Assembly: GCA_905178155.1 (NCBI GenBank)
Contig: CAJINV010000009.1
Span: forward strand, 1,856,882-1,920,881
Length of the DNA stretch: 64,000 nucleotides
Source of the DNA: Amoebophrya sp. A120
Lineage: Eukaryota > Protista > Dinoflagellata
Direction of reading: 5' to 3'
Of the stretch, positions 4,266 to 55,244 are shown in pieces. The notes under the pieces were generated by a model. The model was given only the letters and a program-made list of their open reading frames with translations. It searched no databases and was not told the origin of the DNA. The first letter of the stretch is position 1. Each line of letters begins with the position of its first letter. The position numbers were made by a program, and so were the translations under genes.

Positions 4266-5504
4266 CTACTTCGTTTGTTTACTTCGTGACATCTACATCT
4301 ACTTCGTTTGTTTACTTCTTTTGTTTCGTACATAGCTTCAGCCTGTATCCATGGCGGACGAAACAGAGACTGACGACGTTATATGATGAACGAAAACTTC
4401 TACAGAACGATGACGAAGGACGACAATCATGTGGACGAGCGCGAATCTGCGATAAGTGATGGTATACGGCACTCCGGCTGTACTTTCTTGTAGTATCACA
4501 TATCTATCAAGTACTTACGATTGAAAAAAAGATATACGGCGAACGAAACACAAGAACAACTCAGGAATGGAGACCCAAATCAACGACCCTACTTCACTAC
4601 GTGCCGAAACCTCGATCACAATCAGACGGAAACATGATTGCAATTCGACGAATAAACATGCAATGCACATGCGATGCTTCCGAATGATCAAAACATCACT
4701 AAAAATTTCTATTCTACTCTAATTCCAAATCAAACCCGCCAAAATTTGAAATTTTATTTTTATTGAATATAATATGTGAAACTTGTGTAGTGCGTTAGAA
4801 TCTTATATATTCATGTTCGTTGCATTATGGCGTTTCAGATATCCCCACGAAGGAACATCTCTAACCTATCCTATATTCGCGAAAATTTAAAATTTTAATT
4901 GCAACACATAACGACCACCATCAGTCAGCTGGTTCACGTTGTACACAATTTTCATACATTTGCACTTCTCGGTGACATTCGCTCAGATCATGCATCCCTT
5001 GAATTCGAGTCATCTCAATCAGGGTAAATCGGTCTTGTCTTGAAGAGTTTCACGCCCATATATCCACGCAAACTGCGGCGTGAACTCGTGATAAAGGCAC
5101 GCTGCGCAGCCCCACACTTAGTTCCCGTTCGACAACGCGATCGCGACTTCGCGAAAGAAATAGCGCACGACGCACGAGGACGAGAACAAAACTCGATGGG
5201 CGAGGCAAACCAAGAAGATGAATCGGAACAGCGAGTAACCTAATACCCATGGAACACACGACCAAGGTCGATGAGCTCAGGTTGCCTTCTCCTGCATTCC
5301 GTTTGGTTTTTGTTTTGTCTTCTAAATGTGCCACGAGCGACCACTTCTGACGCTTAATATTTTGCGATGGACAACTAGCGATGTAGAAGTTGTGGCTATG
5401 CACAGCTTCTTATTTTGCGATTCACTTATTCATTCATCCAATAGATGCAATAATCACCAGGACCAGCTCCAGCACGACGGCAGTTTATTATTTGCCTTCT
5501 GTGA

Positions 5505-21994: not shown

Positions 21995-24597
21995 CTAAGA
22001 AGGTGCCCTTCCCGTCGCATCTCCTGCCCCTGGTACAACTCCTTCCTCGAGCAATTTACCCAGCAGTGGTCCGATGTTCGCCTCGAGCAATTCGGACTGC
22101 TCTTCGTCGCTCTTGCACTGCCGCCAGCGCCAGTAGCTGAGAGACACCGGGTGGAAACCTAGGTTGTTGAGAATCCGGTGCTTCACCGTGCGGTTAATCG
22201 GACGGTTTGGCGCGTCGAGGTCAATGACCAACTTCGTTTTCTCGTCCGTCAAATCCGCTCGGAGCGAACCAATACGGAATCGCGTGCAAACACGCTGCCA
22301 TCGCCTGAGCCTGACTAGTGACATCATTTCCTGACGGCTTTGTCTCTGTCGAAATCTCTTTTGCTTGTCATTGCTACTGATGTTCTTCGAATGTATGACA
22401 GACACTCCCAACACTCGTCCGTGCTTGCTCACGACGATGCGGATGCGGCTGGTGCTCACCTACAGCGTCTATTTTTCTACTTTAACTTTTTCTATTTCAA
22501 CATCAACTCATGCACGCTCAACTTTATGATTATGCCGCGCTTGTTGGCAGATATTTTTGCTTTTATATCGAAATACTGAAGCGTTGGCATACTGCACCTG
22601 CTATAATCTTGAGCTTCTTGTTCTTTTTTTTTCATGTAACTCTACTAGCATCGCGAAGATAGACTTGCTTTGACTTTCCAGCACGCCTGGGCCATGGCAT
22701 TTTGTTTGTTGCAATTCGTAAAACGTTAGCCGTGCCAATTTCCGCTGCTTTCCTGCGTCCTTGCTCCGTGGCCGTGGCCATGCTCAAGCCCACATTTTGC
22801 TGCAGCTGGATTTTTTGCTTGTGAAACGTGTGCTCCAGCTTAAGGAGCAGCTCTGCCTGCAGTCGACTGCTCTCGTTCTTCGACTGCGCCACAGAGTCTG
22901 CGTCTTCGCACGCAATCTGCCACTGCTTGGAAAGCTGCACCTTGCTAGAAGAAGATGAGCTAGAAGCTGGAGTTGTACTGGTCGAACTTTGCTGTTTGTG
23001 CTTCTTCTCGTCCGAGGTTTTTTTGTCCTGTTCGCCTCGTCCAGGTGCCCCCGCTCCGGCAAATATCTCCCAGTGCTCGAACTGCAGCGACAGCAGGATC
23101 TCGTGCGACTTTGCGAGCAGTACCCGATTTTTGGGCGCCGGCATGGCCATGAGGCGGTCAATCAGGTCTCGGATCCGCACGGAGTACATGTCCTTGTCGA
23201 ACAAATGCTTGAACCTGCAATATCATTTGCAAAACCATCACGCTGGTACTAATCCCAGTCATGCAGCAATACAAATACCTTTTACAAGACAGAAAGACCC
23301 ACTTACCCATAACATTCGTCATGCCACGAAGCGAATTTGTATTGCAATTACGAGGACTGCACTGTCATGATGCTTTTGCAATTCATATGCAAACGCCCCA
23401 AGCCACGTCGATCATGTGGATCATGTAGATGGTTTGGGTCCGGTGCGTGTCCAGAAACCGCGTTCCGAGCAGCTTTACCAGCTCGGTGTCGTCGTACTCC
23501 GGTTGCAGCATCGACAGGCTGAAAAACAGCTTCGCGTTTTCCGCCGCGGAAAGCTGGTTCTGGTCGATCTCCTGTCTCAGGTGGTCCAGCACGTCCTCCA
23601 CGTTTAGTTTCACCAAAAACCGCAACCGGGAGAGGGAGTAGAGCATGCCGACCAACTGTTTCGGCGTGAACACGTGCAGGTTCTCGAAGGCAAGCTGCGC
23701 CAGCCGGCGGAGCAGAAATCCGCGCACCAGGCCCAGATCAGACAGCACTTTCAGTGCGTCCACAATGTCGCGGGACGAGAACCGGTCGACCTCGTCCGTC
23801 ATCCGCTCCACGATCATGTCGTGCATCTCCCGGTCAAAGAAGCCCCAGCGGCGAAAGGCCTCCAGCAAACCGACCGCGTGCGCCGGCTCGATGTCTTGCA
23901 CGACCTTCATAGTCTCCTGCCGCACAAACTCAATTAATTCCACGTCGTGCACCTTGCGACTACTCAGCGCAAGCGCCAGCTGCGCCAGATACCGGGGCGA
24001 AAACGCGTTCTCCCTTTGCCTAATCGTGGTGGCGAGGCTCTGAACCAGGTCCTCCAGCTCGGGCGTGTTGAAACGCAGCTTCGCGAGCGCGTCGGCTAAT
24101 TGTGCCAGCGAGCGCGCGTCGATCAGCGCTGCGTTGTCCACTTTGTCCTTCACTTTTGCCAAAAGAAGGCGGAACCGCTCGTCGGTCGCAATCTCGTTCA
24201 TGTGCTGCGGATTCTGGTGGTTAGAGCTCGCGAGGCCCCGTATCGCCTCTTGCATAGTCGCAAAGTCGATATCCGCGTTCTCACTGAAAAAATCCAGAAT
24301 TTCGAGGCCTTTTCTCTCGCGTATCGCAAGCCGCCGATCTGATGTGTCGGAGTAGGCAAAGCAACGCTTTTGGCGGACGAGAGACGACGCGGCTGCGAAT
24401 TCTGTTGATGTCAGGACCACCTTACAGCCACTTGTTCTCGTCTGCATTCGGGGCATCACCGTCCACATGCTCGCCACGCTCGCCCGCCCAGAACTACTAC
24501 TAGCCTCCCGATGAAACGACCATGTTGCAGAAGACAACCAACCGGCCCCGCCAAGACGGGGGCTGGAACGTTTTGTCAAAGCTCTCCCAGTCGGCAT
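21995..24597 (-). CDS. Helical-repeat RAP-domain (FASTK-like) RNA-binding protein, 3 exons
   Basis: Repeats FSPRYLAQL, FSSRDIVDAL, FTPKQLVGML; C-terminal RAP-like LVIDLDAP..KHRILNNLGFHPVSLSYWRW; non-canonical intron 23221-23392 and probable GT-AG intron about 22460-22664. Confidence 0.85.
23221..23387. mobile_element. Introner-like non-canonical intron (167 bp core, direct repeat TGCAA)
   Basis: Left end TATCATTTGCAAAACCATCA versus reverse-complemented right end TATGAATTGCAAAAGCATCA (17/20); TGCAA at 23216-23220 and 23388-23392; removal gives WGVC-R-FKHLF in frame. Confidence 0.9.
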
Positions 24598-25857: not shown

Positions 25858-28800
25858 TCACGTAGGACAGGACGGACAGCTCGGGTCTTCTGGAGAAGAA
25901 GTGGCAGGAGCGTGATTTGTGTTCTCCTTCTCCTGCTTGCCAGCACTTACTGACGTAGCACCAAGCTCGGGACGAGCTTGCGCTTGGTGAACCGAGGAGG
26001 ACTGCATTGTAGTTTCGCCGGCACCTCCTCCTCCAGCGCCGTGGGCGGAAACTGCAGGGCTAACTACCGGGAGGCAGTGCCCAGTGCTTTTGTCCATCCG
26101 GCATTTCAAACCGCTCGCAAATTCGCATTGACGGACCTGCCATTCGGTTGCCTCCGTCGCATCTCCTGGGAGGATCACGCTTTTCTCGTCGCAATCAAAG
26201 CACGTCTCTACCATCGCTTTCTCGTTCGGGTTTTCGATGCTTGTCCAAACACAACGACGTGCAAGACCGAACCTCGCTGTCCCGAAGTCAGAACGAAAAA
26301 CACCGACAGCATCCCAAATGCAAATGACCCCCAAAAACCGACTCGACATTGCCTAAGTCGTGACCATGTGCTGTACAACTGTTCATCAAGACATGAAAAA
26401 AAAAATGCATACTTTTTCTTGCATTACTAGCGCATTTGAAAATAGTAAACCTCCACCTATCGTCATCGTCTGAGCGCGAAGAAACTTGAAACCTACCTGC
26501 CAGCCAAGTTAGTTGTAGTGAAAAGTGTGCGAGCTCTCTTTGTGAGTGTTGAGGTTATTTTTTGAGTTTGCATTTTTTGCAACAGTCTTGGGATCATCTG
26601 CTGTACGGGGTGTTGGCAGTGTTCGCATTGAGATAAACCCCGTCGGAGTTACAGACCGATGGCGATTTGAAGCTTGCGCACGTTGTCGGTTGTTTGTGAT
26701 AACAACGGGTCTCGAAGCCAGCTGGAGCAAGATCTTTCTGCCAGGCGTCTTTCAAGTGAGCGTTCTTCTCCTTCGTGTCGTCTTCCGGCGCCTCCTTCCG
26801 AAACAGAATGCAGTTGGAATCGGCAAGAGCATTGGCGCCTGTAGGATCCGTTTCGCGCATCAGCATGTATGCGGTACAATGCAAGTCCGCGCTGCAGAGG
26901 TCGGCGCAAAACCAGAAGGAGCCAAAGGGAGTTGAATCAACGGTCGCGTCGTGGCTGTAGGGAACAAACTGGCTGCTCGAGCAAGCCTCTTTCGATCCGT
27001 CACTTTTTTCGCAGTTGCACCAACCAGGGTCTGCTTGCGAAACGTACTCCGGAGAATACCACGGAGCAACATGTTCAGATGACTCAGGTGCATCAGTAGA
27101 CTGAGCATCATCTTGCGGGAACATACACTCGTGGCCGACATGCTTCAGCAGAGCATCTCTATGAGCGACAGGCAAGCCCAAAATAGCATCTCCCTGGAGG
27201 ATCGTTTCGTCGTGTTGCGTCCCACCGGCAGCTCCACCCTTCTTGTGTATTGCGAGGTCGTACCGCATCGGAAATAAAGCGCTGTTAGCATCGACCGACC
27301 CCGTTGGGCACCCGACCCCGTTGCCCTGTGCTCCCGACGGGTGACAACAGGCCCCCTTGCGCTGCCCGTCAAACGAATCGCACTTGTCGCACCAGCCCGT
27401 TTGTCTGTCGCAGGTCACGAAGCAGTCGTTTTGGTGGCGCCAGAACCACGTTTCGTCTCCCGGCACCGCGTTGTCTTCAGCGGTCGATACTTTTCCGAAT
27501 GTCTCGGCAATGCAGCCGTCACACTTGGACTCGTGTAGCTTAACTGAGCGGCCAACTTGTGCCCCGGGAAACACGCACTCCGCGTGCTTTGCAATTTCTT
27601 CTGGTACTACAGAATCGCCGATGAAGTCGCTTCGCACCAGTGACGTTTCGGGGCCGGCCGTTCCACTAGCTGCTTCAGTTGTATTAGTTCTTGTCCCCTT
27701 GAAGCGCAGGGGAAAATCATTTGGCCAACTCGTGTGTGTGCAAGCTTCGGACGTGTGTCCTACTTTCGACACGTTACAGCACGCACCGGAGCGAGTACCG
27801 TCTCGCGAATCACACTTGTTGCACCAGCCAGTTTTGTCGCCGCAGGTTACGAAACAGTCCCCGTCGTGGCGCCAGGTCCAGTCCCATTGCTCCTCGCGTG
27901 AAGAGCCATCTGCGAGACTGACAGTGACCGTGATTGTAGCACTACTGTCGGCAGTCTGGAAGCATCCGTCGCACTTCGATTCCTGTAGCTTGGCGCACGC
28001 GCGGCCGTGACACTTCTCCCCCAGCAGAGCTACGCGATACTGGTTAGAAGGTTGGTTTTTTTCGCCCGTGACCAACTCTGGCAACTTCGGAGGCCCGATG
28101 TCACTGCCCACTTCAATCTTGCGCATGCAGTGATAGTCCTCAAGAAAAGAAGAAGGAGAGGCCGTAGAGGGGGCGGCTTTCGCAGCTGGTGGCTCCTTCT
28201 CCTCCGCAACTCCGTCGACGTCCGCGTTGTTCTCGGGCCGAAATAGTGTGCAGCGGTCCATCTCGACCTCCGTGCCCTCGCTGCTGGTTGTTTGTACAAA
28301 GGCCTTGCACCTTCCGTCGTTGTTGCACAATTCACTGCAAGATTTCCGTGTGTTGCCGCTTCTCGCCAGCAAAAATTGCTTTTCGCCGGCGCACGTTTGA
28401 CCGCCACACTGACACCATCCCCGACCCAAACTTGTGTACCCGAAGTTGCGTATGTGTGGTAGCACGCATTGGTCGTAGTCCCGTGCATGGGGTTTAAACT
28501 GGGTCTGCAAAAGGGGGTTGTATTCCTGGCGACATTCCGGCGGCTGCATTTTGTTGTCTGCGAGGTCCGTGTCTCGAAAAGCTCGGCAGCAGGCACCCGA
28601 ACGAGTGCCGTCGTTGGAATCGCATTTGTTGCACCAACCTGGTGCGTAATCGCCCCCTCCGCCACAGGTGCCCCAGCACTCGTTGGGACGATTACCACAT
28701 CCCTCGCACTGCGTTTGTTTCGAGCGGCGGCATTCGGGGGTCATTTCAACGGCGTCGGTACCATGGTTCGGCTTCAACGCAAAAAAATTCGGCTGGTCGT

Positions 28801-31800
28801 GAATGAAGCAGGTTGGGAGAAACTCGTCCGGCGGTCTTGGCGCGCCGCCTCTGTTTTTTCCAACTTTCCGCTTCACGCTACTTTTGCAAGCGTCTTCCGT
28901 CTTGTCTATGAGGATCGCCGAGTCCCAATGCAAATTGTATTCCACCTCGACCGTGAGAGAGCTCACCGCGTTTTCTTGTCTATTCTGGAGATGACAATTA
29001 ATATTGTTCCCGGTGGCTGCCTTTTCGAAGTAAAACCCTCTGCAATCAGGACTATCAAAGCACTGAGTGTAGCAGTCTTGGAATGTGTCTGCCGTGACCG
29101 CTTTCGTCTCTGTTTGCCTTTGCGACGGATCTGGACGCATCAAGCGGACCTTCTGCCTCTTCAAGCGTCCGCATTCCGCCTGCTCTCTTTTCACTTTTTC
29201 CTTGCAAGATTCGAAGCTACTTTCTTGTTGTTCGCTCTCCCGCTCCATCACGACGGAGTCAAAAGAGGGCTCGCTGATGGTAGCAGTCTCCGGATTCATT
29301 GTTGATCTCAAAAAGCAGTTGGGGTCGTTTGCTGCTGCTGCATCTTCTTTCTGTGCCGCATTCTTGTTGTACGTGAAACCTTTGCAGTCGGTTTCTTGCA
29401 AGCACAACAGCCAGCACTTCTCAAACGGCAGGTCCGCTACGACTGCGAATACGCCGGTACCGTCGACTGGAAATTTTATGTTCTTCAAACGGACGCAGGT
29501 ATCGGTAACGTCGCGCGACCAGGGCAGCACATGGCGTGTCACGGGGACTGGCGGAAAGCAGGTCTCTTCATCTTGTTCCACAAGACCTCCTCCCGCCACG
29601 CGGTCCAACACCACCGAGTCACAACAATTGTCCTTCCTGGCCTTCTCAGTCGCCACCGCTTCGTCCGTGAGGAAAAGGGCACAGCTCTCATCGTTGCCGG
29701 CAGTAGCGGTGCCGTCTTTCCTGTGGGTAAAGCCCTTGCAGTCCGAGTTGTTTGCGCAGGCCGTCCAACATTCCTCAAAGGTGAGCTTGCCCGTCGGTTC
29801 TTCCGGACTTTTAAAGTCCTTGAACTCCCCTGCTAAGTACGTTACATCTTCCAAGCGCCGGCATGTAGGTACAGGTGGCGCGTCACAGATCGAGCCATCT
29901 TCCCGCTTCAAGAACACAGAATCGAAATCGTATATGTGGTATTGAAAATCGGGATCGGGATCACCCATGTCCGACTTGAGGATACAGTTTGATGTCAACA
30001 CGGTCGCATCGTCCGGGACGTGTTTTCCGTACACAAAGCCTACGCACTTGTCGTGGGCTTTACAAGCCGCCCAACACTGTTCGAAAGTGACTAGCCCATC
30101 CATGTTCCCGTGCACATCCGTGCCTACGTACTCCACGTTTTCGATCCGCGTGCAAAATTTTTCGGCCGCGGTCCGGCTCACAGCAACACTGAGGGGATTG
30201 GCGTCGTGCACAATCTTGGTCCGTGCGAAGGTGAACCCGTTACAGGCCTCGGTCTCTTATGCATTCAAACTTTTTATTTGCCCACGCTGAAGACCCAAGA
30301 AAGTTCCTCCACTGTTACTGTTTCGAATTGCAGGTGAGGCAGACCAGGACGAGAAAGATTACACACAAGAAGACGAGGCTCAGCACGAGCAGGGCAGAAC
30401 CATGCAAAAGTTGTGTTCACAAGACATGATACTCAAATCAATGTCAATGTCCGACAAAACCAGAAGTCGAGGAATAACTTTGATGCCGATCCGCCGGATA
30501 AGAGACATAGCATTAGCATTACCGAGGCGGTTCAAATAAAAGTATTGGAATACAGGTGATTCTAATATTCTCTGATGAAGATCAGCATGGCCCGCAAACA
30601 GGCGCAAGCTTTGCAAGAGCAAGTGCACGTGCTACTTCGCAAGAAATACAAGCCAAGCCCCTCCATACGATGCAGTTGCAGCAGAAAGATGCACGTCTGC
30701 TTACAATCTAATCATGAAATTCATGAAAATCAAATACACGTTTTCAATTTCAATCATACATTTATTTTGGGCGCAACGGGCATAAAAAATTGGAATTGCG
30801 TTGTATTGCATAACTCGACGCACAGATTCAGGCACTCTTCGTAGGTGCGCACGTCCTGGACGAATCGCGAACCCACGCCGTGGTTTTCGTAGCCGGAGTG
30901 CTTCATATTTGTCTGTCGGACGCAGCCTTTCTGGATGCCACCGCCGGCGCCACTGGTAAGGGCAAACGCCTGCGTCGTCGCGACGCTCTGTCCGAGGCGT
31001 GCCTGGTCACCGCAATGATAGTACTTGATTTCCATGGTGTCGGTGCCTTCATGTAGTTTTCGATCCACGCCAATGTGCGTCACCATTTGAGGGGTGCGTA
31101 GGTCAGGTTGATTTACCGTAATGTGGTCGCCATTGATCCCGCACTTGTATCGCACACCATATTGTATCTCGCTTACACTTTTCACGGATGTAGAAAATAG
31201 GCCGTAGTAATCCCAGGCCTTGGCGTCTGAGCAAACTGATTCGTGCCTCCACAGCACGTGCGTACGCGGAGTATCAGAAGAAATTTCACCGTGCTCGGCC
31301 TCTACCACGTCCTGGGAAATGCTGGGATCAGCACCGCCGGGGAAGACAGCAGCCTTATCGCAGCTCGTCTCGTGCTTAATGTGCAGCTGGGTGCAGCGGC
31401 TGCATAGGGTGTTTGTAAATTCTTGGCGCGCGAGGTCGGAGTACGGCTGCCACAGCGGCGCCACGTCGGAGATCTGGAGTTTGGTAAGTAAATCTTTGAG
31501 GTGCGCGGCATCGAGCTCCTCCTTCTCCAGATCTGCGTACAGTTCCGTGGGCAGCAGCATGTGCTTGGGCACCTGCTCCGCCGCACGCCCCGCTCGCGCG
31601 AATTTCTCCAGGTGCACGCCCACAGCGAGGGCCTCGCTCAGCAACTGCCCCGTCACGCGAGACAGATCCACGATGTCCTCCGAGACCAACACGGGCTGTG
31701 TCAGGCGCGCCACGGTTTTTAGATACAGCTCGAGCAACTCGTCCTCTTGATCCCGGAACACCTGGAGCAACTGTAGCCACTCCCCCTCCAGCGTTTGAAA

Positions 31801-34800
31801 CCGCTCCTCGGCGTTGTCTTTTCGGATCTCCTGCAGCTGCTGCATCGCCTCCACCTCGAGCTGGTCCATGTCACCGTTTTGCCCTGCACCATCTCCACTA
31901 CTAGTACTGCTCGTCGATTGCGCTGCTCTCTGCCCCCGCGCAAGATTGTGCTCCAGCGCTGAGAAATCTTCCCGTTCCCTGGTGGAGTGCGCACGTCGCC
32001 CCGTTCTTTCGGTGAAACTGCTCGTGGCCATCGCCGCGGATGGTCCGGGTGAGCCGTATTGCAAGGACGGCAGCTCTCCGATTTTTCTTTCTGCAAAGTC
32101 CATCTCGCCCGACAAGTCGCTTTGCAGTTTTTTCCCGCTGCAAACCTGCTGATCGCTGGCGTAGTCCTCCGTGTCTGCGCGCGCTTCGCCGGAGTGGTCC
32201 TTCTCGTCGAAATCTAGAGCCGGTGCTTGAAAAAAGTCCCGGTGCTATCCTGTGCAAAAAAATTCACATTGCCTTCGTGAAGCTTCACTGCCTTTTTGAT
32301 AAAATGACTATATCATATTGAAATGCACCAGAGCGCAACAACGCCGATGAAGTTCCAGTTTTCCCATATCATATGTTTGCTTTCTACGCATTTGGTTACC
32401 AGATGATAGTCAGCGTACTGGAGTGACAGAATTTAATTCGCTTCACGACACTTCGTGGTCCAGGCTGCCACCGCTGACCACAGGAAGACTTTTATCTGCT
32501 CGTCATGCTCGTCCTTGCTCCTAGGTGCTACTTCATGGTGATACGTGCCCGTCCAATTCTTGCATGCACCACGGAGATCTCAAGTACTCTCACACGATCA
32601 TATATTATATATGACTGTAGTGAATCGAGGGAATAGGGAGAGCGGAATAGGGAGAATAGGTCAATAGGGAGAGCCGTGGTAAACCTAATTCCCCTTGAAT
32701 CGCGATGGTATGCTCCCTTTTGGTACTTAAGCCGTAGAACCAAAAAAAATTCGCGCGCGCGCTGCGCGCGCGCATTCACTCACCCCATACGCACCCAATG
32801 GCGTTGCATCGATTCGAAGGCAAACGAGAACCGCGCGCCCGTTGAATCATCGAAGGAAATTTGAAGTGGCCACTTCAACTTTCCCTCATCGAAGGAAAAT
32901 CGAATATGCCCACTTCCACTTTCCCTCACCGAGGGAAATTTGAAATGGCCACTTCAACTTTCCCTCATCGAAGGAAATTTGAAATGGCCACTCTACCTCT
33001 CCGCCTTCGCCAGCTGACGAGCAAGACCTAAGCCCTACGGGCCCGCAAGAGGATAAAGCCCCTCAGGGAAGGTTCCGCGCCTCCCCGACCCCGGGAGGAG
33101 CCGCCGAGGAGGGGGGTACTCGGAAGCATTTCCGCCCCAGATTTCGAAAGATGTTGTCGCGGCCGCGCCGTGCTGTTTGCGATCAGTTTGGTTTTGTTTT
33201 TGCTGCCCCCTTTTAGGGGGACTCTCCCTACTCTCCCTATCTCTCCCTATTCCCTATTGCTATTCTATAAAGCGTTCTAATATATCAGTAGCAGCACCCG
33301 CCGTTTCGTTTGAATGACTAAAGCAAATAAATGACATGTGTAAATGCTCTTACGGCTGCAGTATGCAAAGTCAAAGACAAAGAATCCTTGCGCAGGATAG
33401 CTCCAAGACCTCCGCTACGCGCTGCTCCGCAAGGTCCAGTGCGGTTTTGAAGTAGGCGGGGCTCTCCTCGCCGTCCGCGAGAAGCTGGAATCCGAACCAT
33501 TTGATCAGCTCCAAGAGGCGGAAGGCAGCGAGCCGCAGAACAAACACTTGGTGCAGCAGTACTTCCCGACGCCCGATGATGCTACGGTGCTGGCGCAGCT
33601 GCTCCGTATTCTTGTCGAACAGGGGACTTACCAGCAGTGCCTGGACCGCTGTGTCCAGATTCGTCACGTACACCTTTGACAGCTCTGGTCTTTGCTGCCC
33701 TGCTTCTTGCGCCCCCGCCTCCTCCCCGGCTGGTCCTTGGAGGCGCTGCACCTCCTCAGCAGCACCGGACCAACCGGTGTCGAGACAGATCTCGGGCGTC
33801 TTCTCCGCCGACAACTCCCCGGCACCTTGAGGCAGATGAGCTGTGGCAGCTGCACCACCGCCGGCCTCCTCGGCGGAGTAAAATCGATACAGGGCGTGAA
33901 ATTTCCTTTGAGTGCCGGAGTGGGGGCTGCCAGTTTGGCCGCCGCAGTGCCCGAAACCGACCACACGCTTGCGATTCACGAGGGGTGGTGGGTTCTGGTT
34001 GGGCGAGACCGGTCTGTCATTGTGGTGCTCCGTGCTAGCGTCGCCGAATTTGCAGTTGCCCCAGCACTTTTGGTCTGAAACTCGGTCTTCGGCGTCATAC
34101 ATCTGCGAGATCGTCGAAGACGTGGTCCCGATGCCGTGCTTCTGATGGCAAATGCATTCTTTTGATGCATCGATCGAAAAATACTCATACATTCTGTCCT
34201 CGCGGCCGCAATGGTCCGCGCACTCGTAGACGGAGCGATCTGCGTGCCCCTCTGTCAGTCCCTCGTTTCCGCGCAGCGCCTCGTAGCAGCCGACGTACTC
34301 GAAGTCGTTTTCTCGGTCAACCATGGAGAGCTCCAATGCCCGCCGCGTCTGCTCTGCCACCGGGAGATACCCGACCGCCGAAAGCGAGGGCGCCAAGCCG
34401 CCCGTCGAGACCGCGCTCATGTCGTACTCCTGTCGCTCCGTGTACATGTGTTCAAACACCGAGTTGTGCCAGCCGCCTCCGCAAATGTTCACATCGAAAT
34501 GGTTTTCGTGGCACTCCTTTTGGCACTCTTTCTCTTCTGCGTGTCCATGCTTTCCAAACCCAGCCTTCCGCTGTCGGTCACTACACCAACACTCATTGTG
34601 GTCCTGAATCGCGAAGTAGCGGTACCCCTTGCACGCTGTACCACACTCGTCTATGGTATACTTTCTGCCAATAGGCTTTTCCATGGCGCGTTCGTCCCCA
34701 TTTTTGTCCTTAAAGCACCCGATGTACTTGCGCCATTGCACCCGGTCGGACATGCGAGCTTGCAAGCCCCTCAAGGCGAAGCGCGCGCTGTCGTGGTTGC

Positions 34801-37800
34801 GCGCCGCAAGCGCGCTGCCTTCGATGTGCTGGTACAGCGTCCAGGTCGCAGCCCAATGGTTTTTCGCTTTCTCATCATCGATTTCGCGAGGGGGTTTCTC
34901 AAACGAAAAGAAGAGGCAGCAACCACTTGCCGGATGCACCGCAAAGTAATTGTAGGTGCCGTCATCTTCCGCCAGCCGGGCGCAGTCAGCGGCGTTCATC
35001 CGTCGATCTTGTTTGTCTTCCTCGTCGTAGTTAGCATGCAAAGCTTCGGGGGCTTTGCCTTCCCGCCCGGGAAAATTCAAAACGGGGGGGTCGTCGACCA
35101 CGGAGCTGCTCTCGCACTTCCCGAATTTTGCCCACTTTTCAACAGCATCAAGAACAACTCTTGTGACCACGTTTGCGGGGTCATCTACAGTTGTATGCTC
35201 GTTGGAGACTTCCTCCTGAAACCATTTCAATTTATTCGCTCGTGGTGAAACGACCTCCCACGATTCAGGCACTGCTTTTTCGGTGCTGAACAGACCTCCC
35301 CCTTGCCCGATAGTGTAGCAGGCGCGAAGAGGAGTATCCCAACAGTCGCCATTCAGGATGCAAGTCGTCATTTCCTTCATCAAGAACTCTTCTTCGTTTG
35401 TACTTTCCGTAGTAGCTTGTTGAGAGTCTGCTGCCGCTGGCGTCGGGGGGCTATAAGCCTCGTAGTAATTGCGGTTGCGCTTTTCCACCCGTTCACACTG
35501 CCAAAAAGTCGGCCGCACCAGATCGCGTGTGTACATCGAGAGTTTGTCACCACCACCCCCACAAAACAACTTCTTTCCTTGTCCCCAGGAACCCGCCGCG
35601 CACGGATGCGAACAGGAGTCGTCAGTCAACACCCCAAGTTTGTCAGCGAAAGTCCAGTGGTCGTCGTGACAAAAGCACTCGTGGCCGTTGCGAATACCAA
35701 AGTACCGAAAGTGCCCGCACTGATACGCACACTTTTGCACCGAAAACTTTTCTCCTGGCTCCTCGGGGTGAAACAAAACGCTTGTCTGGACTTCGCTTTT
35801 TTGATCTTGGAAACACCCAATAAACGCAGCATCGAAGTAGGTTTTATCTTGCGGGGTGCAATGTTGATGTTCATCAAGATGATGGGTGCAGACGTTCTTC
35901 TTGCCCAGTAGCTTCGTCATGCCTGCTGAGACTGTTGGGAGCGTTTCTCCACCAGAGCCTGCGCCCGCGGCCTCCGAATTCAGATGCTCCTCCTGTCCAG
36001 CTCCAGTCCTTTCATGCCGATGAGCACCAGACTTGTCTCTTCTGCCTGCTTCGGTGAACGACGTGGCCGGTGTAGCATCTTGCGAGTCCTCGTATCCGGG
36101 GATCTGGTTAGAGTTGAGCACGGGAGACGTAAACGCCTTCAGCGCGAATTTGGTCCACGCCTGTAGTTCGGCTTCGGCGGCCGACTGCCGAATCTCGTCC
36201 ACGTCGGCCAAGGCAGCGAGTGCCTGGTCCACGAGTAGCGCGACACTCCTGTGGTACTTTTGAAACATGTCATGCGCGCGGCGATGACTGAGGGGATCAT
36301 CCTTGGCCGTTTTATAGTCACGAACAAGCATCGCCGGGTCAGCAAACGGCGTCCACCAACCGATCCGATTTTGGCAGATATCGGCGTGGATGGGAGAGGA
36401 CCGCGGTGTTGGTTCTTGTGCCATGTGCTGCTTCAGGGTGGTCATCATGTACATCAAAAAGTTCTTCACGTTTTCTGATTTGACCTTTGTGTTTTTCAGA
36501 ACCTCCTCGTTGGACTCCTTCCCGGTTCGGCAGGGCTCCGTCTGGAACAGTGGCAGCAGGGCGTCGGCATCCGCAGCTTATCCCGTGACACAACACCTTC
36601 ACCTTCCCAGCCACACAGACATCGGAAAAACAATTTATTTCTACCTCTACTACAGTTGTAAATCATATTAATTCGTAAAAAAAACCTCCACGCACGACCA
36701 CAGGCACACATGCAAGAAGGACAGTAAGTTTTTTTATTCCAGCGCTTTGATGTACGAGACTTTTTTTTGTTACCTGGCGCTGCAATAAATTGGAATTTGT
36801 ACTACGTTCTAGATTTAGTGGTAACTGCTTCGGCTTCGCACTAGTAGCTGCCTGCGCATCACCGCAGCGAGAATTGGTGAATCAATCACCGTCATCTTCG
36901 TCGAAGCGGTTCAATTATAGAGTGGGCGTGATTTTTGATCGATATCAACATCCCAACATTCATCCTCAATATTGGCAGAATGATCATGATGATGTTTCTG
37001 GTCGTGCCAATGAAACAAGTAGAGGTCCAACTCTTATGACAAATTCAAGTTGTACGGTATCACTGGCGCAGCTGGGAAGTTGTTCGGTTTTTTGCAGTGG
37101 ATATGGAATAAGTGTCCTCCGCCTCGGTGTTCTCCAAAGCAAGAACATTGTTGTTTTTGACAGCATCCAAAAAGTTTCTCCAACTGTTCCGGCTGATGCT
37201 GCGGTAGAGCAGCGCGTCGTAGTCCTCGGTGTCGCGGACGCGAGTACTCGCCCCTGTGGTCGGGTCATGTTCATGTTGGAGGGGACTGCAAAACCAAAAC
37301 AGGTCGCGTTTCATACGCAGCTGCGACTGCACTTGCTTCAAGTTTATCTCAACGTCCTCCGGCGGCGGCACGCTCCCCTCGACCTCGCTTACTATCGAGT
37401 GAATCTTTGCCGTGCATGCTTCTTCGAACGCGTGCCCTATTGCTTGCTTTTCTTCTACTTTTAGGTCGTCAAATGTTTTACTCCTGTCCGCAACCGCAAC
37501 CAGTAGTGGAATCTTGTCAGCACCAGGAGAAATGAATTTCTTAATTCTCTTGACCGCAAATACAGCGAACGCCGTTGGGAGATCATCTGTGTCTTCAGGT
37601 GAGGCTGTGGCTCGCCATTTGATCAAACGTTCGCACGGGTAAGAATCTTGACCTGCACCAGGAGCTGCCTGCAGAGAAAGAACCGCTCTAACTGTTGGCT
37701 TCAGCTCCTCGATCTCGTGCACGCTCGGCAATTCTAGCTCTAGGTTGTTCTGATGAAGCAACCGGAAGATTGACTGGCCCATCAGGACCCCTCCGCTGGT

Positions 37801-43326: not shown

Positions 43327-46300
43327 CTTGATCTTCTGTTCTGACGTTGTATCCAGAACCTTATGGACGCGATGGCTTCGTAGTTCCGATTAAGGACTAG
43401 AACAGGTGGAGCTGATGCAACAACACAGCACACTGTCAGCGTCCTTCTCACCAGAGTCGTGATTTCCGCAGAGCAGAATGAGCTTCGACGACGACAGAGG
43501 CCACGTCATTTGTTTTCAAGCGGATAAAGCGCATCTGCACGGAAATCTATAGCTAGAGTGTGGTCCACGTTACAGTTACTACATATACATACAGATACTT
43601 GCATACGATATACGCTTCTGCCAGCGCCGTTCGTTGTACGTGTGCGCGGCAGGAGCACCTCTACCGCTGCACTGAAATGCGCAAAAACACAGAAACAAGT
43701 ATCTATGGTTATTTTACGTAGCTACGATGGTCATCTTCCTGAGTAGCAGAAGACGTTTGTCTGCAACTGTTTCCCTGAGGACATACGAATACTTTCCCAC
43801 AACTTTACGAGCACAGTCAATATGTTAACCTTCGTCTGGTTTCTGGCTTTCCGTTTCCTAATCGCGGGCCGCGATTAGGAAAACGTTGTTTTGTGACGCA
43901 CGATCTTGTCTTTGACGAACAACAACGAAGCGGCGGACAATACGAAGCGTGCAAAGTAATTCATTGGAAAAACAACGACGACCCAGAAACTTGCGACGCC
44001 CCCGACAAGAATGATTGCTCTTTCTGTGCCCACGACGAAATGTGTATCAGTAGTGCGCACGACGACGAAATCTCTTCATGTTCAATCAACATTCTTCAAC
44101 GATGCACAACATGCTGAAAAGTTGCGTTTCTCCTGGTCCTGTCCGGGAAAACACGCGGCCAGCAGAGCAGTGCCAGTGGTCCGTCCTGGTTGCTCAAAGT
44201 CACACCGAACAAAAAGGTCGAACCAGAAGTACGATAATCGTACTTAATCCTTCGCCTGGTTGCACTTGCATAGCTGTTTTGTTTGGAAATAGCCATCTGT
44301 AGACGAGTTTTAGACCACAGAATCAGCGAGAAAACAAAGAGTAGTGTTTACTTGGTGAAGCTGTATTCAACAAATTGAATTTGAAACGAATGTTAATCCG
44401 TGGTAGTAATGCAGCGAAATGGAGGTTACAACTTCGGATCACTAATTTTCTCTCTAGTACTAGTCGTTGATGCATGTTGAAAGACAAAGACTATATTAAG
44501 CGCTTGTATATTTCAGTTCATCGATAAATATGTTGCTTCCTCCAGTAAAGTTTGTGTGACTGGGCCAGAGGAGCTCCGCGCACACGCTAGTTTCTATTGG
44601 TATTGTTTCTGCTACCCTGCGAAATTTTTTGCAATCCACTGCAACGCGGCGATTGTCCTGTACTCGAGTTGTTCCTGTTACTGCTCACTAAATGTGTTTT
44701 GTTTATTTCAGATTGATTCCGTATCCCCATACTGATTCTAAAACTTACTATGGTTTAGCTACAACAACTTCATCACTGGTTGTTTTTGTTCAATACTATC
44801 ACTACTTTCTTTTCGAAGTTCTCTCATTTAGATTTAGTCAAAGCACGCCCGATTTCTTCTTTCTTGCAAGACGTAGGAGCTCACGAAGTCTTAATTCTTT
44901 ATTATCCCAAAGATACAACTCATACTCATGTTCACTGCAAGATGAACCATGATAAAATGTTATTATCAGGTGGATTTAAGTCTCTAATTATTATGTGTGA
45001 ATATTATTTGTGTAAAAAGGTTATTCTTCATATTCACGGCAAATCGAAACGGTATCCGTAGTTGAGGTTGAGCCACCCAGGAAAAAGGAGCTGTTTCCCA
45101 ACTTCTTGTTTAATGGAAGCCGAATTCTGTGGCACTTCTATTACTATTCCGAAACGAATGTGTAAGAGCGGAAACGGCAGCTAAACTGGATATAATTACT
45201 TATGATAACCTCATCTCTACTATTTTTTGTTCTTTATTCTTGGCAGCTCGCTGCATCGGTCGTGCTTACTATTATTTAGTTAAGTAAGTGGCTGCTATGC
45301 TGGTGGCCGCGCTACGCTCATCTCGAGCTGCAATGACCACATGAAGCCACAAAATTCTTCAAAATAGATAGTTTTCCACATCGGCAGCGATATAATTCGT
45401 TCGATAATTGCACCCTCGTTTATGGTTTTGGCTACCACCTGAAGTGATGTTCGTGAGGTTCTAAAAAATGGTGCGATTCATCTCCTGTGCTCTTCATGTC
45501 AGTCTTAATGCTGCAGCTTCGTGGTCCGTCGTGCAGCAAACGACCTCGTCATTGATGCACTTTTTTCACGAACTTGTGCGGTGACGGCGGTGGACGATGC
45601 GTCGGCGAGGTATGCAGAGAAAAACGACAATGTCAATCATATCGAGCAGAAGTCTGCAAGTCCCATTTTTTTTTTATCTTTGCGTGTACTCGGAGTCAGA
45701 TGTTGATGTAAGTCGGACTGGCTCCACCTATGCATAGTGACAACTAGATCAGCATCCCTGCTTTTGGAGAAGGCCTGAGTTCCGTTCATACATTTGAAAA
45801 AGATGCTTGTTTCAACATCATGGTCGAGCAAAAACGCGCGCATCTACGAAGACCACGAACCTTGACTCGATGACTCAATGTCGTGCTAGTTTACCCACAT
45901 AGATTGGCGGAATTCGGTTCTCACCCTGTATCGCAGCCAAAAAGAGTACAACCAACTGAGTCAAATTGCAAATCGATACTTAAAGCACAAAAAGGTACAC
46001 GACAAGGGTGGTGCTGTTGCGATCATGATACAGATACGGCAAACCATCATCTTCATCAAATTAATAGAGATATTTTTGGTGAGCGCCACACTGCATCGCA
46101 AATTGCCCTCACCAATCATTATCTGGTTTGCCAAAATTCAAATTGTAAATCACATGATAAATAAGACTATATTATTTCATCCATTACATGGCAAGAATCG
46201 GTGGAACTGACCACGTCGCTGGTTGCCATTTCTGTTCTTTTCGTACCGGGCTGCAATGGTGCGTCATTGGCGGAAACCTAAAATTTAAATTTTCGAAATA

Positions 46301-46901: not shown

Positions 46902-49900
46902 TTACGCTGTCCCTTGTGCGGCCAGAAAGCCATCGCCCGTTGGCCACGTCATGGTGCTCGCCAAAGCCGGCGGAGGGTGGTCCGGTAGATGCGTGGGGTC
47001 GTCGGTCTCCAGCAAAGTGATGCCAGGCGGCGAACGCGTCGGAGTTTTCTTCGGCGACTTTCTGGCCGACATGCTCATGGAGAGATTGACTGGAGGATCC
47101 GCGATGGAATACGAGTGCGCGACAAGGTTCGGATCCGTGGCCGCGTGCGTCATCGGGAGCTGGTGGTAAGCCCCAGCCTCGGTGGAGGACTCGTGATGGT
47201 GCTGCTGTAGCACCGGGGATAGCAACTGCACGGGGTGCTGACCTTGCATCGTGCTATGATGATCTTCACGCAACAAGGTAGTGTGGTTCTCGCCTCCACC
47301 CGTGCTGACAGCGGCGAGGTGATGCGCGGCCTGATAGTGGTCTTGACTGATGCTCGTCAAATGCGCGCTCGTCCCCAACTGATCATGTGGTGCGGGTGAC
47401 GTGGACAAAGCCGCCTGCATAGCTGCATTGTAATGCTGCAGAACACTGTGTTGATCCGCAAGTTCGTGGAGAAGTTGCTGGCCGTGCTGATGATCGTGGT
47501 GCTGCAGCGTCGCAGCAGCCGCTCCACTCGCATTGGCATTTGTTGCGCCTGAGTTTGTTGTTCCGTAAAACGACGACTGTTGCTGCGTCAGTTCCGGCTG
47601 CGAAGACGGGTGGTCTACTACGCCGCCCGGCGTACTCGCGTTGCCGCCTGCAAAGCCAACGTGATTCTGGTGGTTGCTTTGAGCACCATGCAGAGCTTGG
47701 TGCGGCGCTCCAGCACCCGGCGCGGTGGCGGCCGCCATAGCTGCGACAGCACCGGCTGCACTGGCACCGGAGATGTACAATGCATGCTGGTGAACAAGCT
47801 CCTGGTAGCTGTTAGCGTAAGAATCGGACAACGGCGACGCGTTGTAGTTGCTGTGGTCAGCGGTCGGCATGGTTCCCATTTGGGCATAGTGCTGTGCCGC
47901 GCCGGCATTGGTCGACGCTCCGCCCGCAGCTCCGGGCGTCGTGGAAGTACCGTACTGGGTCGCACAACTGCTGTTGTAGTTGTGGTGCTGGTGATGTTGG
48001 TGCCCATGCCCGCCACCGCCCGAAGTCGAGTGCATCTGGTGGTCTTGGTGTGGTGAGTTTGCGGCAACAGCAACAAAACTGTGCTGAATAGTCCCGTGTT
48101 GATGCTGGTGGTGGTGATGCTGCTGCTGGTGGGCCGCTGCTGCCGTCGCACTCTGGTGCTGGTTGTGCATGGCCGGCTGGTGGTGCTGCTGCTGTTGCGC
48201 CGCAGGACCAGCTGCCCCCAAGTGGTGCAGATCACTCGATTGATGGTGTTGACCACTGAAGTGATTCTGCATCAGATGCAGCCCGTTGCCGGTACTGGCC
48301 CCGCCTTGATGCGCCGACGCGGCGCCGGCGGTCGTGTTCGCACCGGAAGTGCTGGCAGCCAGCAGCTGCTGTTGGTTGTACTGCTGCTCAAACAGCGAAG
48401 CCGCGGCACTAGATTGATGCTGGTGGGGCGTTACTGCCGACGAATTCTGACTGTATAAGAGCTGCTGAAAGTCCTGGGAGTCCACCGCCCCGAACGTGCT
48501 TGTCCCGAAAGAGTTCATCGTTGTGGAGCGGTTCGCGCTTGCCAGGGAGTTGAAAGACTGCGAGTGCTTGTTCGACGCATTCATCGCCTGCTGCTGCGGC
48601 CCCCCGCGGCCGCCGGTAAAGTTGGTGTTGGTAATGGTGTTCAGCGAGGTCGCGCGGGCGCCCACCTGCTGCGGCCCGTTGCAGTTCTGCATCAGCCCCT
48701 GACTCAAGGCTTCCGACGTCGAAACCTAAGGAGCGAGATGGCTCAGTGGACGAAGTATTTTTCTTTTATTCATCAACGCAGAAAATATAGAAGTTTTAGA
48801 TTTAGTACGCATCATCGATCATCCCAACTCCAGCGCAACTTGGATAATGGGCTGCAGCAGCTCGCCTGCACTACACAAACAGTACGTAGTAGGCAAGAAG
48901 ATCCGTTTCAATTATACTGCCGGGCGCTCGTCACGAAGGTAAATTTTCGGCAGGCCTTCTGGCGGCGGCGGCTTTCTGCCACCGTCGACGCCCGTGACCT
49001 GGTCTTCCGCGATCCACTTCTGCACCTGGTGAGACCACTCGCTGCGCAGGCAGACGTCGTGGGCCGCCTGGTACACGGTGAAACGGTACTTCAAGTCGTT
49101 CGCGGACATGGTGTGGAGAATCTCCCGAAAATGCTTCAACACTCGCACTATCAAATGTAAAAATGTCTGGGTCTCCTGGAAACTTGTGACGCTGGGTCGC
49201 GTATCATGAGGAAGCCATAAGCGCTGGCTCAGCATGACAAGTTGCTGAGCTTCTAGGTGTTGCCTATTCTGCATGACAAACTGCGTTTTTGCAGGACAGG
49301 AAATTGGGGCTCTTGGGTAACCTGCATGACAGGTTTAAGTTCAAGAGTCATGCCAGAGAAGCATGACAAATCGCGCATTCTTCCAGACCCAGACATTTTT
49401 ACACTTGATACGCACAGCGCTGATCGAATCGTGGAGCGCCCCGTGGCACCGAATCAAACTTGCAAACGTGTGCGCGTTCAGCGGGCGCACGTACTGGAAC
49501 ATTTGCGACACCTGGGTACATTTAGTTGGAAAATGTGGGCGTGTGGGTACGGTATGATGGTGAAGTGCGGGCGTACGACGCCGGCATGCACCGTTTGCAC
49601 GATGGTGCGTGGTCTACGAGAGCTCAGCTCACGTCTTCTCGATTTCGCTGATCCGCGAAATTTTAAAATTTTATTTTTATTGCAAGAATATTTGAAATCC
49701 AAAGAAAATGCAAATCATTAACTATGTATGCATGTTGTAATCGTGTGATATGGAGTCTATCATACTTTGTTCCACGTAACAAGCCGCGAAATATTAAAGT
49801 TTCATTTTTTTTGTAGATGAAAATCCGCGAAATTTCAAAAATTTATTTTTATAGAGAACACATGAAAGTGTCGAAATGTAGTTTCCGGAACGAAGCGATT

Positions 49901-52360: not shown

Positions 52361-55244
52361 CTACAAGTCTTGATCTTTTCCCCTAGTACCGCCTCGACTA
52401 TACACCGAGGATGGTCGGCTATTTTTGCCCGCTGTCGTCCCTCGATTTCCGCCGGAGGTCTGTGAGGAGGAAGATCCGCCACCTGTTCGAGGACTGCTGC
52501 TCGCAGTACTTCTGGACTGCTGTGATCTAGTTGTGGTTCTACTATTCGAGGCGGCGCGGTCGCTCTTCTCGTCTCCCGAAGAATCAGCGTAGGAGTGCCC
52601 CCCGCCGTACTGATTTGTCGAGCTATCGTAAGGAAAAATCCCCCCTCCCCATATCGAAAACGAAACTTGTGTTGCTGTGTTTGAGTACACAAATCACATT
52701 TGTCTTGCAGTAAGGCACTCCGGCCAGATCCGCAGCCTAGGTGGGAGAGCTCAGGTCTAGTTGTTCAGCATTGCAAAAGGCTACCCTCTAGGACCAAGAG
52801 CATGCCAAATCGCTTCACAATTGGGCAGATGCCTCTGCGCTTGTCCTTTTGCAAGACAAACCTGATTTGTGGCCACAAATCAGCAACACAAATTTTCGGA
52901 AACATACCTTTTTGATATGGGGAGGGGGGATTTTTCCTCTCAATACGAGCCGCCGCTTCTACTATGCTGGCCGTGACTCGGGGCGCCGCCCATGCTGTAG
53001 CCGCTGCTGGTGCCACCTCCCCCACCCATGCCACCGAAAAAGTGGGTAGCGGCGTGGTAGAGTTTCGGGTGGCTGGATTTGATGGTCTCGAGCTTGTCGC
53101 AGGAGGTCTTCGGCATGGACTTGGCTCGCTCCATCTCCTTCGACCGGGAGGTCGGATCGGCGATTTTCCGTGCCTGCATCACGCGCTTCCACATTTTCTT
53201 TTCCTGGTACTCGCACTCCGACTGCTGGGAGCGGATGAACTGCATCTCCACCTCCTCCTCCAGCTCCAGCCGGTTCGCTTTGTTTTTCGGAAACTGCTGG
53301 TTAAAGTCCCGTTCGCTGTGGACAAAATACTGCGCCTTCAGCCGCGACGTCTTCTGCTCCACCTGGAACGTCGAGTCGCGCGTCAGGGAAAACCTGTTTA
53401 GTCGTAGTTGCAGGGAAAGATAAGAAGAGCTAACTACAGCGATGAGGCCGTGACTTCTTATTTCCATCGCAATTTTTTGCTATTCCTAGCTAGTACCGAA
53501 CAATGGTGCAAAACTGTCGAACCTATGTTGCCAAGGTACAAAAAAGAGTCTTTTTTTCTTGTATGAGCATAGGAATTCTTTGGGAATTCAAAATAGCGAA
53601 GCGAAAAAAATAGTGCTAAGTAGTACACTCGATGGGTCCTTGGCTGGAATATTCCGGACGACGTAAGTGCGGTGAGAATGACGAAGAGCAGGGGGAGTAA
53701 ATTCAAAAGTTGTTGTCGCTGTACGTCTTCTGGAGCTGTTTTCATTTTTTTTTTTGCGCATGAATGTGACAATCACAATGCTCGTCTTGGTCATCGAAGT
53801 GTACCACTGCATTATGTAAATCAACGGGACCAAGTCCAAGAGCACCACAACCGCGTGCTACACAAAGGCAAATCCAGCACTAGTCTATGTGAATTATCTT
53901 TTCCGCACCTGCTTGCTGCTGCTGTCGCTGCGCGCCGCGAGCACCTCCAGGGTGCCTGTTCTGCTGCTGCATCCGACCCCCGTTGAAGAACATGTCGAAA
54001 AAGTCGTTTGCTGTCATAAACTCCTCCTGGCGAAAATTTGTCTGCTGCTCAGCTCGATCGGGATCGCCACATTGGTCGTAGATGCGTCTGTGTGTAGGAA
54101 AAAAAATGCCAGACTAGAAAGGTTTTTCATGATTTCATAGTTGCGACGTGGCTGCGAGAGCAACATCAGTGATTTCATCATGATTATGGCTTCAAAATCT
54201 AAATCGTACCAACAACGTGCCAAAAATTAGACGTACCTTTTATTTGTGTCTTCCAGACACTGCACGGCTTTGCTGAGTTTTTTGAAGGCTTCTTCCGCGC
54301 CCGGCGCCCCGTTCTTGTCCGGGTGCAGCTTGAGCGCCAGCTTCTTGTAGGCCTTTTTGATTTCGTCGACCGAGGCCGTTTTTGTCAGCCCCATCAATGC
54401 GTAGAAGTCCTTGGTGCGGAGAATTTTCTGCACGAGCTGCATTTGCTCCGGCGTGTACTCCCGTTTGGGCTGCGTGGCGGCCTTGGCGCTCGCGCTCGAA
54501 CTGGTACCTGCTCGGCCCGCTGCGGTGGGGCGCGTAGTTTGACTCGACGAGGACGACGAAGAGCCGCCGCTGTTCGGTGCGGCACCTCCTCGACTCGTCG
54601 GGTTATTTGCTGCCCCAGCACCTCCTGCTCGCGCGTTCGCGGTGGCACCAGCAGTTCGTGGTTGCTGCGCCCCCGCTGTAGTGGGCCCAGCGCCGGCGCG
54701 CGGCCTCTGGTGCTGGCCGGCGGTGGCTCCGCCGGTTGCTGCCCCATTAGTGCTGGTGGTTCCGCGCCTGCTGTTGGCACGCCTTCTGGCGCTGCCGCCG
54801 CTGCGATTCCTCGCGTTCTGCTGAGCTTGGCGGGAGAGGTACGCGGTGAGAAGGCTGCGCATGGCACCCGGATCGGCGCCCAGCCTGACAGCCTTTTCCA
54901 TGAACCTGGTTTGTGTTTTCAATGATGCTCTCGTTGCACTTTTCCTTGACTTCATGCTCTTGTCTGGTGTCGTGGTCAAAAATTACAACAAGATGAATTT
55001 CATCAAAGCATCATGAAGAGTTAGAGTGATATACATCCGCGTGGTCATCATCTTAGTGAATGATCATTATCTTTTACACGACTAACCGGCAGTAAATTCA
55101 TCTTGCCACTACTAGCAAAATCTTCAGCAAAAAGTATAAATCGAGAGAGTACTTCTGCGCTTTCTCCTTGTCGCCCTGGGAGATCGCTTCCCGCATGCGC
55201 GCTGTACACTGATCCACACCATCTTGGTTAATGTTCGCGGTCAT
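52361..55244 (-). CDS. ER-type J-domain co-chaperone, DNAJB12/14-like (J domain, TM segment, DUF1977-like region), 6 exons
   Basis: KKAYKKLALKLHPDKNGAPGAEEAFK; N-terminal GDKEKAQK-FMEKA; TM LLPLLFVIL; GT-AG introns 54906-55152, 54088-54236 and 53736-53908; probable GA-AG intron 53394-53638; introner 52624-52950. Confidence 0.9.
52624..52945. mobile_element. Introner-like non-canonical intron (322 bp core, direct repeat CGAGC, inverted repeats of about 90-100 bp)
   Basis: TAT..AGGAAAAATCCCCCCTCCCCATATC..TTGTGTTGCTG..CACAAATCA..TTTGTCTTGCA mirrored at both ends; CGAGC at 52619-52623 and 52946-52950; removal gives RSGGS|TNQYGGG. Confidence 0.95.

Follow-up and report, generated by a model that had tools for sequence, protein, structure and literature searches.

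A repeated 674-bp DNA element inside a TAT-ended introner of Amoebophrya sp. A120, probably removed together with its host in one splicing step

Introduction

When a mobile element lands inside an intron that is removed without canonical splice signals, is the insert carried out with its host, or is it spliced as an intron of its own? The question is raised by a long gene in the window analysed here, a stretch of 64,000 nucleotides from Amoebophrya sp. A120. In the available text of Farhat et al. (2021, PMC7789003), the introners of this strain have inverted repeats that start with TAT, a following run of A and 5-bp direct repeats, and according to the supplement legends their non-canonical splice sites are offset from the repeats by 1-5 nt. 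That intron analysis covered 40-1000 bp only, and the same text reported no transposase in the A120 genome. A sequence-only reading of the window had proposed that one intron, given as 1156 bp, contains a second element of the same TAT-ended family, and that the pair might behave as a twintron or the inner element simply be carried along.

Results

The outer intron is removed from RNA-like sequences as a 1159-nt unit

The reading frames of the window show that the nested intron belongs to a long minus-strand gene. Joining the exons at five RNA-like joints gives a protein of 3630 aa with WSC and PAN domains (Pfam), identical to the Amoebophrya sp. A120 database protein P0003, which may rest on the same RNA data as the contigs. 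The other four RNA-shown introns of this gene measure 355, 560, 530 and 365 nt.

Our RNA-like data are assembled contigs, in which rare splice forms get lost. In an X4 contig 32240 is followed by 33400, so that 1159 nt are missing (the exact joint is ambiguous by 1 nt), and the loose end of an X5 contig has 32211-32240 immediately ahead of 33400. X3 contigs cover both exons and have no bridging junction. The joint is therefore seen in two of the three covering RNA-like runs (X3, X4 and X5), all of which come from one sample and whose RNA nature is a guess. The reading frame stays open across the skip, and the public protein at the joint reads ..VLE-R-DFF.., the 1159-nt form, not ..VLE-H-R-DFF.. 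In X4 and X5, then, the outer intron is taken out at non-canonical sites. The inverted-repeat ends described in the sequence-only reading are present, but the length removed is 1159 nt rather than 1156 bp. On the plus strand, antisense to the gene, the intron at 32242-33400 reads GT..AG, and on the sense strand CT..AC; the antisense GT..AG is likely a coincidence and a trap for aligners, and the contigs themselves show no strand. X4 and X5 cross the junction, but the X3 contigs break off before it on either side (at 32235 and 33409, 5-9 nt away); this may be due to filtering, or weakly hint at heterogeneity of the junction.

In four of the five RNA-shown introns of the host gene, the length skipped is that of a TAT...ATA element plus 5 nt. 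These four introns have a single register in common, in which cleavage precedes TAT by 1 nt and follows ATA by 4 nt (-1/+4), and one of the four junctions is the only one that fixes it unambiguously. The 355-nt intron at 26282-26636 (joint 26281/26637), which is required for the full 3630-aa frame, has a TAT near its donor and no ATA end, and breaks the element-plus-5 rule.

Table 1. Features of the nested intron and its flanking exons (positions in the window)
Feature	Position	Strand	Basis or remark
Outer TAT...ATA introner element, 1154 bp (474 bp without the insert)	32246-33399		No second copy seen; RNA-like joints, contigs
Outer terminal inverted repeat, acceptor end, TAT-N7-AAA	32246-32258	+	
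Outer terminal inverted repeat, donor end, TAT-N7-AAG	33387-33399	-	Predicted stem, pairing probability about 1
Putative outer 5-bp target duplication, copy 1, decayed (3/5 match copy 2)	32241-32245	+	
Putative outer 5-bp target duplication, copy 2, decayed	33400-33404	+	
Outer non-canonical intron, 1159 nt	32242-33400	-	Joint in X4 and X5; open frame; sense CT..AC; 32241-33399 equally good
Inner non-autonomous DNA element, 674 bp, TA..TA ends	32606-33279		Contig branch points; sister copy L001
Inner 6-bp target duplication ATATAT, left copy	32600-32605	+	Same geometry in L001 (TCATAA)
Inner 6-bp target duplication ATATAT, right copy	33280-33285	+	
Left subterminal array, three (AA)TAGGGAGA(G) units	32628-32675	+	
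Right subterminal array, inverted, three to four units	33220-33258	-	Predicted pairing with left array
Internal 39-bp palindromic tandem repeat, 3.7 copies	32847-32992		Unit number and sequence vary between copies
Upstream exon of host gene	33401-36574	-	RNA-like contigs; Pfam (WSC domains here); joined exons identical to P0003
Downstream exon of host gene	30814-32241	-	RNA-like contigs X3 and X4; joined exons identical to P0003

The outer element has introner ends and looks single-copy

The sequence GCTATCCTGTGCAA lies at 32244-32257 and its near-complement at 33388-33401, with 13 of 14 positions complementary. The outer element thus has the inverted repeat of 8-20 nt that A120 introners carry at both intron ends, together with their motif of TAT, seven nucleotides and at least three A, the donor end being one A short. 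As for the 3-5 nt direct repeat that such introners have over the exon boundary, three of five positions match here, a putative decayed duplication. Over the four RNA-defined TAT...ATA introns the 5-bp repeats match at 11 of 20 positions, where about 5 are expected by chance. This is the unselected figure; a pooled count of 26/35 is biased by the inclusion of three introners that had been picked by a scan for their perfect repeats. Those three TAT...ATA elements, at 23221-23387, 49149-49410 and 52624-52945, were found by sequence scan and have perfect 5-bp duplications; once the element and 5 nt are taken out, at least one frame stays open across each site. For the outer element, a 2-bp GC duplication had been considered and was dropped after the contig joints.

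At 80-85% likeness, no second copy of either outer half was present in the X1 or X2 contigs, which are filtered, so that a distant family is possible. The right half has single-copy depth, the left half runs unbroken in its own contig, and the contigs examined held no empty outer copy or allele. The outer element therefore does not show the repetition by which an A120 introner family is recognised; it looks single-copy and fits the "singleton" class in the available text of PMC7789003.

The inner element is repeated and has TA..TA ends

The sequence-only reading had placed a 684-bp element at 32601-33284. TATATTA at 32601, TAATATA at 33278-33284 and TCA on both sides are all present, but the true ends are 32606 and 33279. 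Sequence common to other copies starts at 32606 in two X1 contigs; it ends at 33279 in X2 records 6-8 and X3 record 12, and runs to 33283 in X2 record 3. Five of the seven bases of TATATTA/TAATATA are therefore target DNA, and the copies share only 32606-33279. With these ends, the intron left after removing the inner element is 479 nt, not the 469 bp obtained before; its likeness in size to the neighbouring introns stands.

Contig depth over the inner element is several times single-copy, with other letters present, and contigs of 835-2643 nt leave it into other flanks; summed contig depths were not taken as copy numbers. The sequence-only reading had proposed a search for further inner copies. 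It returned these repeats and a full copy with matching boundaries, so the segment is not single-copy, and the claim that one transposon had inserted into another is borne out by the contigs and by this sister copy.

The sister copy, L001, was the one locus that matched the subterminal pattern in a scan of metagenome contigs. It is 677 bp long (874-1550), shares its first and last bases with the window copy and is identical to it at 580 of 626 aligned bases. It starts TATATATGAC and ends GCGTTCTA, and its flanks carry a perfect 6-bp duplication, TCATAA, with no other repeat of length 2 to 8. The copy sits within a GT-AG intron of 857 nt, 174 nt without the element. The exons flanking this intron match the A120 protein P0005, the flanking exon being 88-90% identical; judged by this likeness, L001 comes from a lineage related to A120. 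The two copies have the same orientation relative to their host genes, which at 2/2 is not significant. A 20-base pattern taken from the 39-bp repeat had no match in viral or metagenome contigs.

The inner target duplication is 6 bp in both full copies (ATATAT in the window, TCATAA in L001). In the window it is perfect (6/6), whereas the putative outer one is decayed (3/5). A TA duplication had been entertained for the inner element and was dropped after the sister copy. Both full copies lie within introns, and the suggestion that insertion also occurs outside exons is supported for the inner family. This is, however, a different family from the TAT-ended one to which it had been assigned: it has TA..TA ends, a 6-bp rather than a 5-bp duplication, and lacks TAT-N7-AA(A) at both ends.

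The true inner ends, TATATATGAC and, on the other strand, TAGAACGC, have only two complementary bases. Inverted arrays of TAGGGAGA, about 40-50 bp each, begin about 20 bp inside each end, and the outer 20 bp do not match. The longest ATG-started frame is 56 aa, leaving the element without coding capacity. Four Rfam matches on the palindromic repeat, all far below gathering scores, were rejected. In X2 record 8 and X3 record 12, the likeness to the inner element is confined to its last ~30 bases (33244-33279) and the interior differs; such contigs possibly represent a sister subfamily and might point to an autonomous partner. Another copy, in the RNA-like X3 record 11 (33258-33278), ends one base short (..GCGTTCT, then other letters), either as a variant terminus or as a joint.

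A flanking direct repeat of at least 2 bp occurs at 67 of 324 boundary pairs around the inner ends, the register 32601-33284 being one of these 67, and the window contains 129 loose TAT...ATA pairs versus a mean of 182 in 20 shuffles. Because such patterns arise this readily by chance, a short terminal inverted repeat with a target duplication is by itself no evidence, and copies and RNA decide. De novo scans of the window for the same pattern were swamped by chance matches and were not used as evidence. Other repeats in the window are a 10-bp tandem repeat of 7.7 copies (1-77), an AT-rich 45-bp sequence that recurs at three places with 83-85% identity (4736-4781, 49651-49697 and 49823-49867) and a 29-bp near-perfect palindrome in non-coding DNA (43854-43882).

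The insert leaves the predicted outer stem in place

By structure prediction, the outer stem has a mean pair probability of 0.9 whether the insert is present or absent. Of its 13 pairs, 9 are retained in the single best structure with the real insert; with shuffled inserts, at least 9 were kept in 40 of 40 cases and all 13 in 33 of 40. We therefore rejected the idea that the inner element needs a fold of its own to spare the outer stem, as shuffled inserts do equally well or better. The inner element is nevertheless predicted to fold strongly on itself (z -9.7), closed by the subterminal stem, with 223 inner-inner versus 16 inner-outer expected pairs. The TATATTA stem has a pairing probability of 0.0, and this repeat is absent from L001. 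The inner element lies 120 and 364 nt from the splice sites and interrupts neither outer end signal.

No joint that skips the inner element alone was present in the X3 or X4 contigs, and no RNA-like contig from X3 or X5 lay on 33280-33389; both observations are weak, as rare forms drop out of contigs. Removal of the full 1159 nt was the only event seen in the RNA-like contigs, in agreement with the proposal that the inner element is simply carried along.

Discussion

The junction, the inner ends, the 6-bp duplication in both full copies and the repetition of the inner element are direct observations. The explanation that we favour, with a probability of about 0.83, is that this 674-bp repeated element is a non-autonomous DNA transposon of another family, sitting inside an older TAT...ATA introner and carried out passively with it in one splicing step. 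The TAT introner would have come first, inserting into an exon and creating a 5-bp duplication, which later decayed, and the younger TA..TA element would have entered an AT-rich site inside it later. The latter was probably moved in trans, by an integrase-like DDE transposase that would bind the subterminal TAGGGAGA arrays. The splicing machinery likely reads the outer terminal stem and would cut in the -1/+4 register. With both ends free of the insert and the stem predicted to stay undisturbed, no ordered removal would be needed, and a single cut at the outer stem would be enough.

Whether the inner element could instead be cut first, through its subterminal stem or through TATATTA/TAATATA, to leave an intron of ~470-480 nt that is then removed, bears on the twintron proposed earlier, be it optional or obligate. 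The available text of PMC7789003 suggests that splicing here is tied to terminal hairpins, and the modelled inner domain, closed upon itself, might serve as a cryptic substrate; a 7-bp TAT...ATA repeat is present on the sense strand, and the empty intron of 479 nt is close to its neighbours in size. A twintron nevertheless appears unlikely. The inner intron of a twintron has splice determinants of its own, whereas this element has no TAT terminal stem, no TAT-N7-AA motif and no 5-bp geometry, and the TATATTA repeat neither pairs in the predictions nor recurs in L001. A twintron also interrupts an outer signal, but here both end signals are continuous and the outer stem is predicted to be intact. 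The lack of an inner-only skip in the RNA-like contigs argues in the same direction, weakly, since contigs drop rare forms. The particular version in which an IS3EU/GingerRoot-like subterminal stem is recognised and cut first, giving a nuclear twintron made of two unrelated transposons with no GT-AG on the sense strand, seems to us improbable. Were the inner element spliced first, the locus would gain greatly in interest, as a nuclear twintron defined by a stem.

Passive removal would also hold if the passenger had been moved by something other than a DDE transposase, either a tyrosine recombinase (Crypton-like) or an HUH nuclease (Replitron- or Helentron-like). The inner element has internal palindromic repeats and no true terminal inverted repeat, and its ends carry short direct repeats such as those of Cryptons (4-6 bp in the available text of PMC3212892). 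These repeats, however, differ between copies (ATATAT and TCATAA) and are perfect within each, as target duplications are, whereas the terminal repeats of Replitrons are constant across insertions according to the accessible part of PMC10288648. The inner element thus has no terminal direct repeats of its own, an argument that is weaker for Cryptons, as constancy is not stated in the available text of PMC3212892; we regard this origin as quite improbable. Still harder to credit is that the inner element is a further TAT introner (32601-33284, target duplication TCA) that happened to land in an intron. TATATTA/TAATATA and the paired TCA in the window speak for it, but the other copies share 32606-33279 only, L001 has its 6-bp duplication at ends of that type, and the introners of the window have 5-bp duplications and TAT-N7-AA ends, so that this reading is largely refuted.

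We therefore return to a DNA transposon carried passively within an introner. The locus is a natural test of intron removal without canonical signals: the intron has grown from 479 to 1159 nt and its putative duplication has decayed, yet the cut is still in the family register. This is consistent with a machinery that reads only the terminal stem, a question left open in the available text of PMC7789003. The locus also defines, in two Amoebophrya lineages, the ends of a small element family with TA..TA termini and 6-bp duplications, which can be used in a transposase search.

Comparison with known systems

The outer element resembles the A120 introners of PMC7789003, as described in the text available, in its TAT repeats, A run, putative 5-bp repeat and non-canonical sites. 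It differs in that the intron, at 1159 nt, exceeds the 40-1000 bp range and that no second copy of the element could be detected. The inner element stands apart from these introners, having neither TAT-N7-AAA nor a 5-bp duplication.

TA..TA termini with a 6-bp target duplication are the stated signature of IS3EU/GingerRoot in the accessible parts of PMC10045372 and PMC6839031, and the inner element has both features in the window and in L001. GingerRoot elements, however, have terminal inverted repeats of 100-150 bp, as against subterminal arrays that begin ~20 bp inside the ends here, and the 674-bp inner element lacks a transposase. By these end features it may be said to resemble IS3EU/GingerRoot, a likeness that does not imply membership of the superfamily.

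The stwintrons of Hypoxylaceae (PMC9024468, PMC12403724 and PMC8469720, in the portions available) likewise place one intervening sequence within a second. In those fungi a splice signal of the external intron is divided by the internal one, so that two reactions are required, whereas neither end signal is interrupted here.

Secondary insertion into introns is treated as background in PMC9860276. The word "nested" is absent from the main texts of PMC7789003, PMC12130899, PMC9860276 and PMC11282704, and our searches of the literature on introners, twintrons and Amoebophrya splicing turned up no nested case described for Amoebophrya. In Micromonas, introner elements that are nested or merged have been described (Verhelst et al. 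2013, PMC3879977, in the text available). Both cases have a mobile element inside an introner or pre-existing intron, but the inner piece in Micromonas is an introner or a remnant of one, whereas here it is a different and apparently non-splicing DNA element. The locus is an ordinary secondary insertion into an intron and a new example of the nesting already described in Micromonas.
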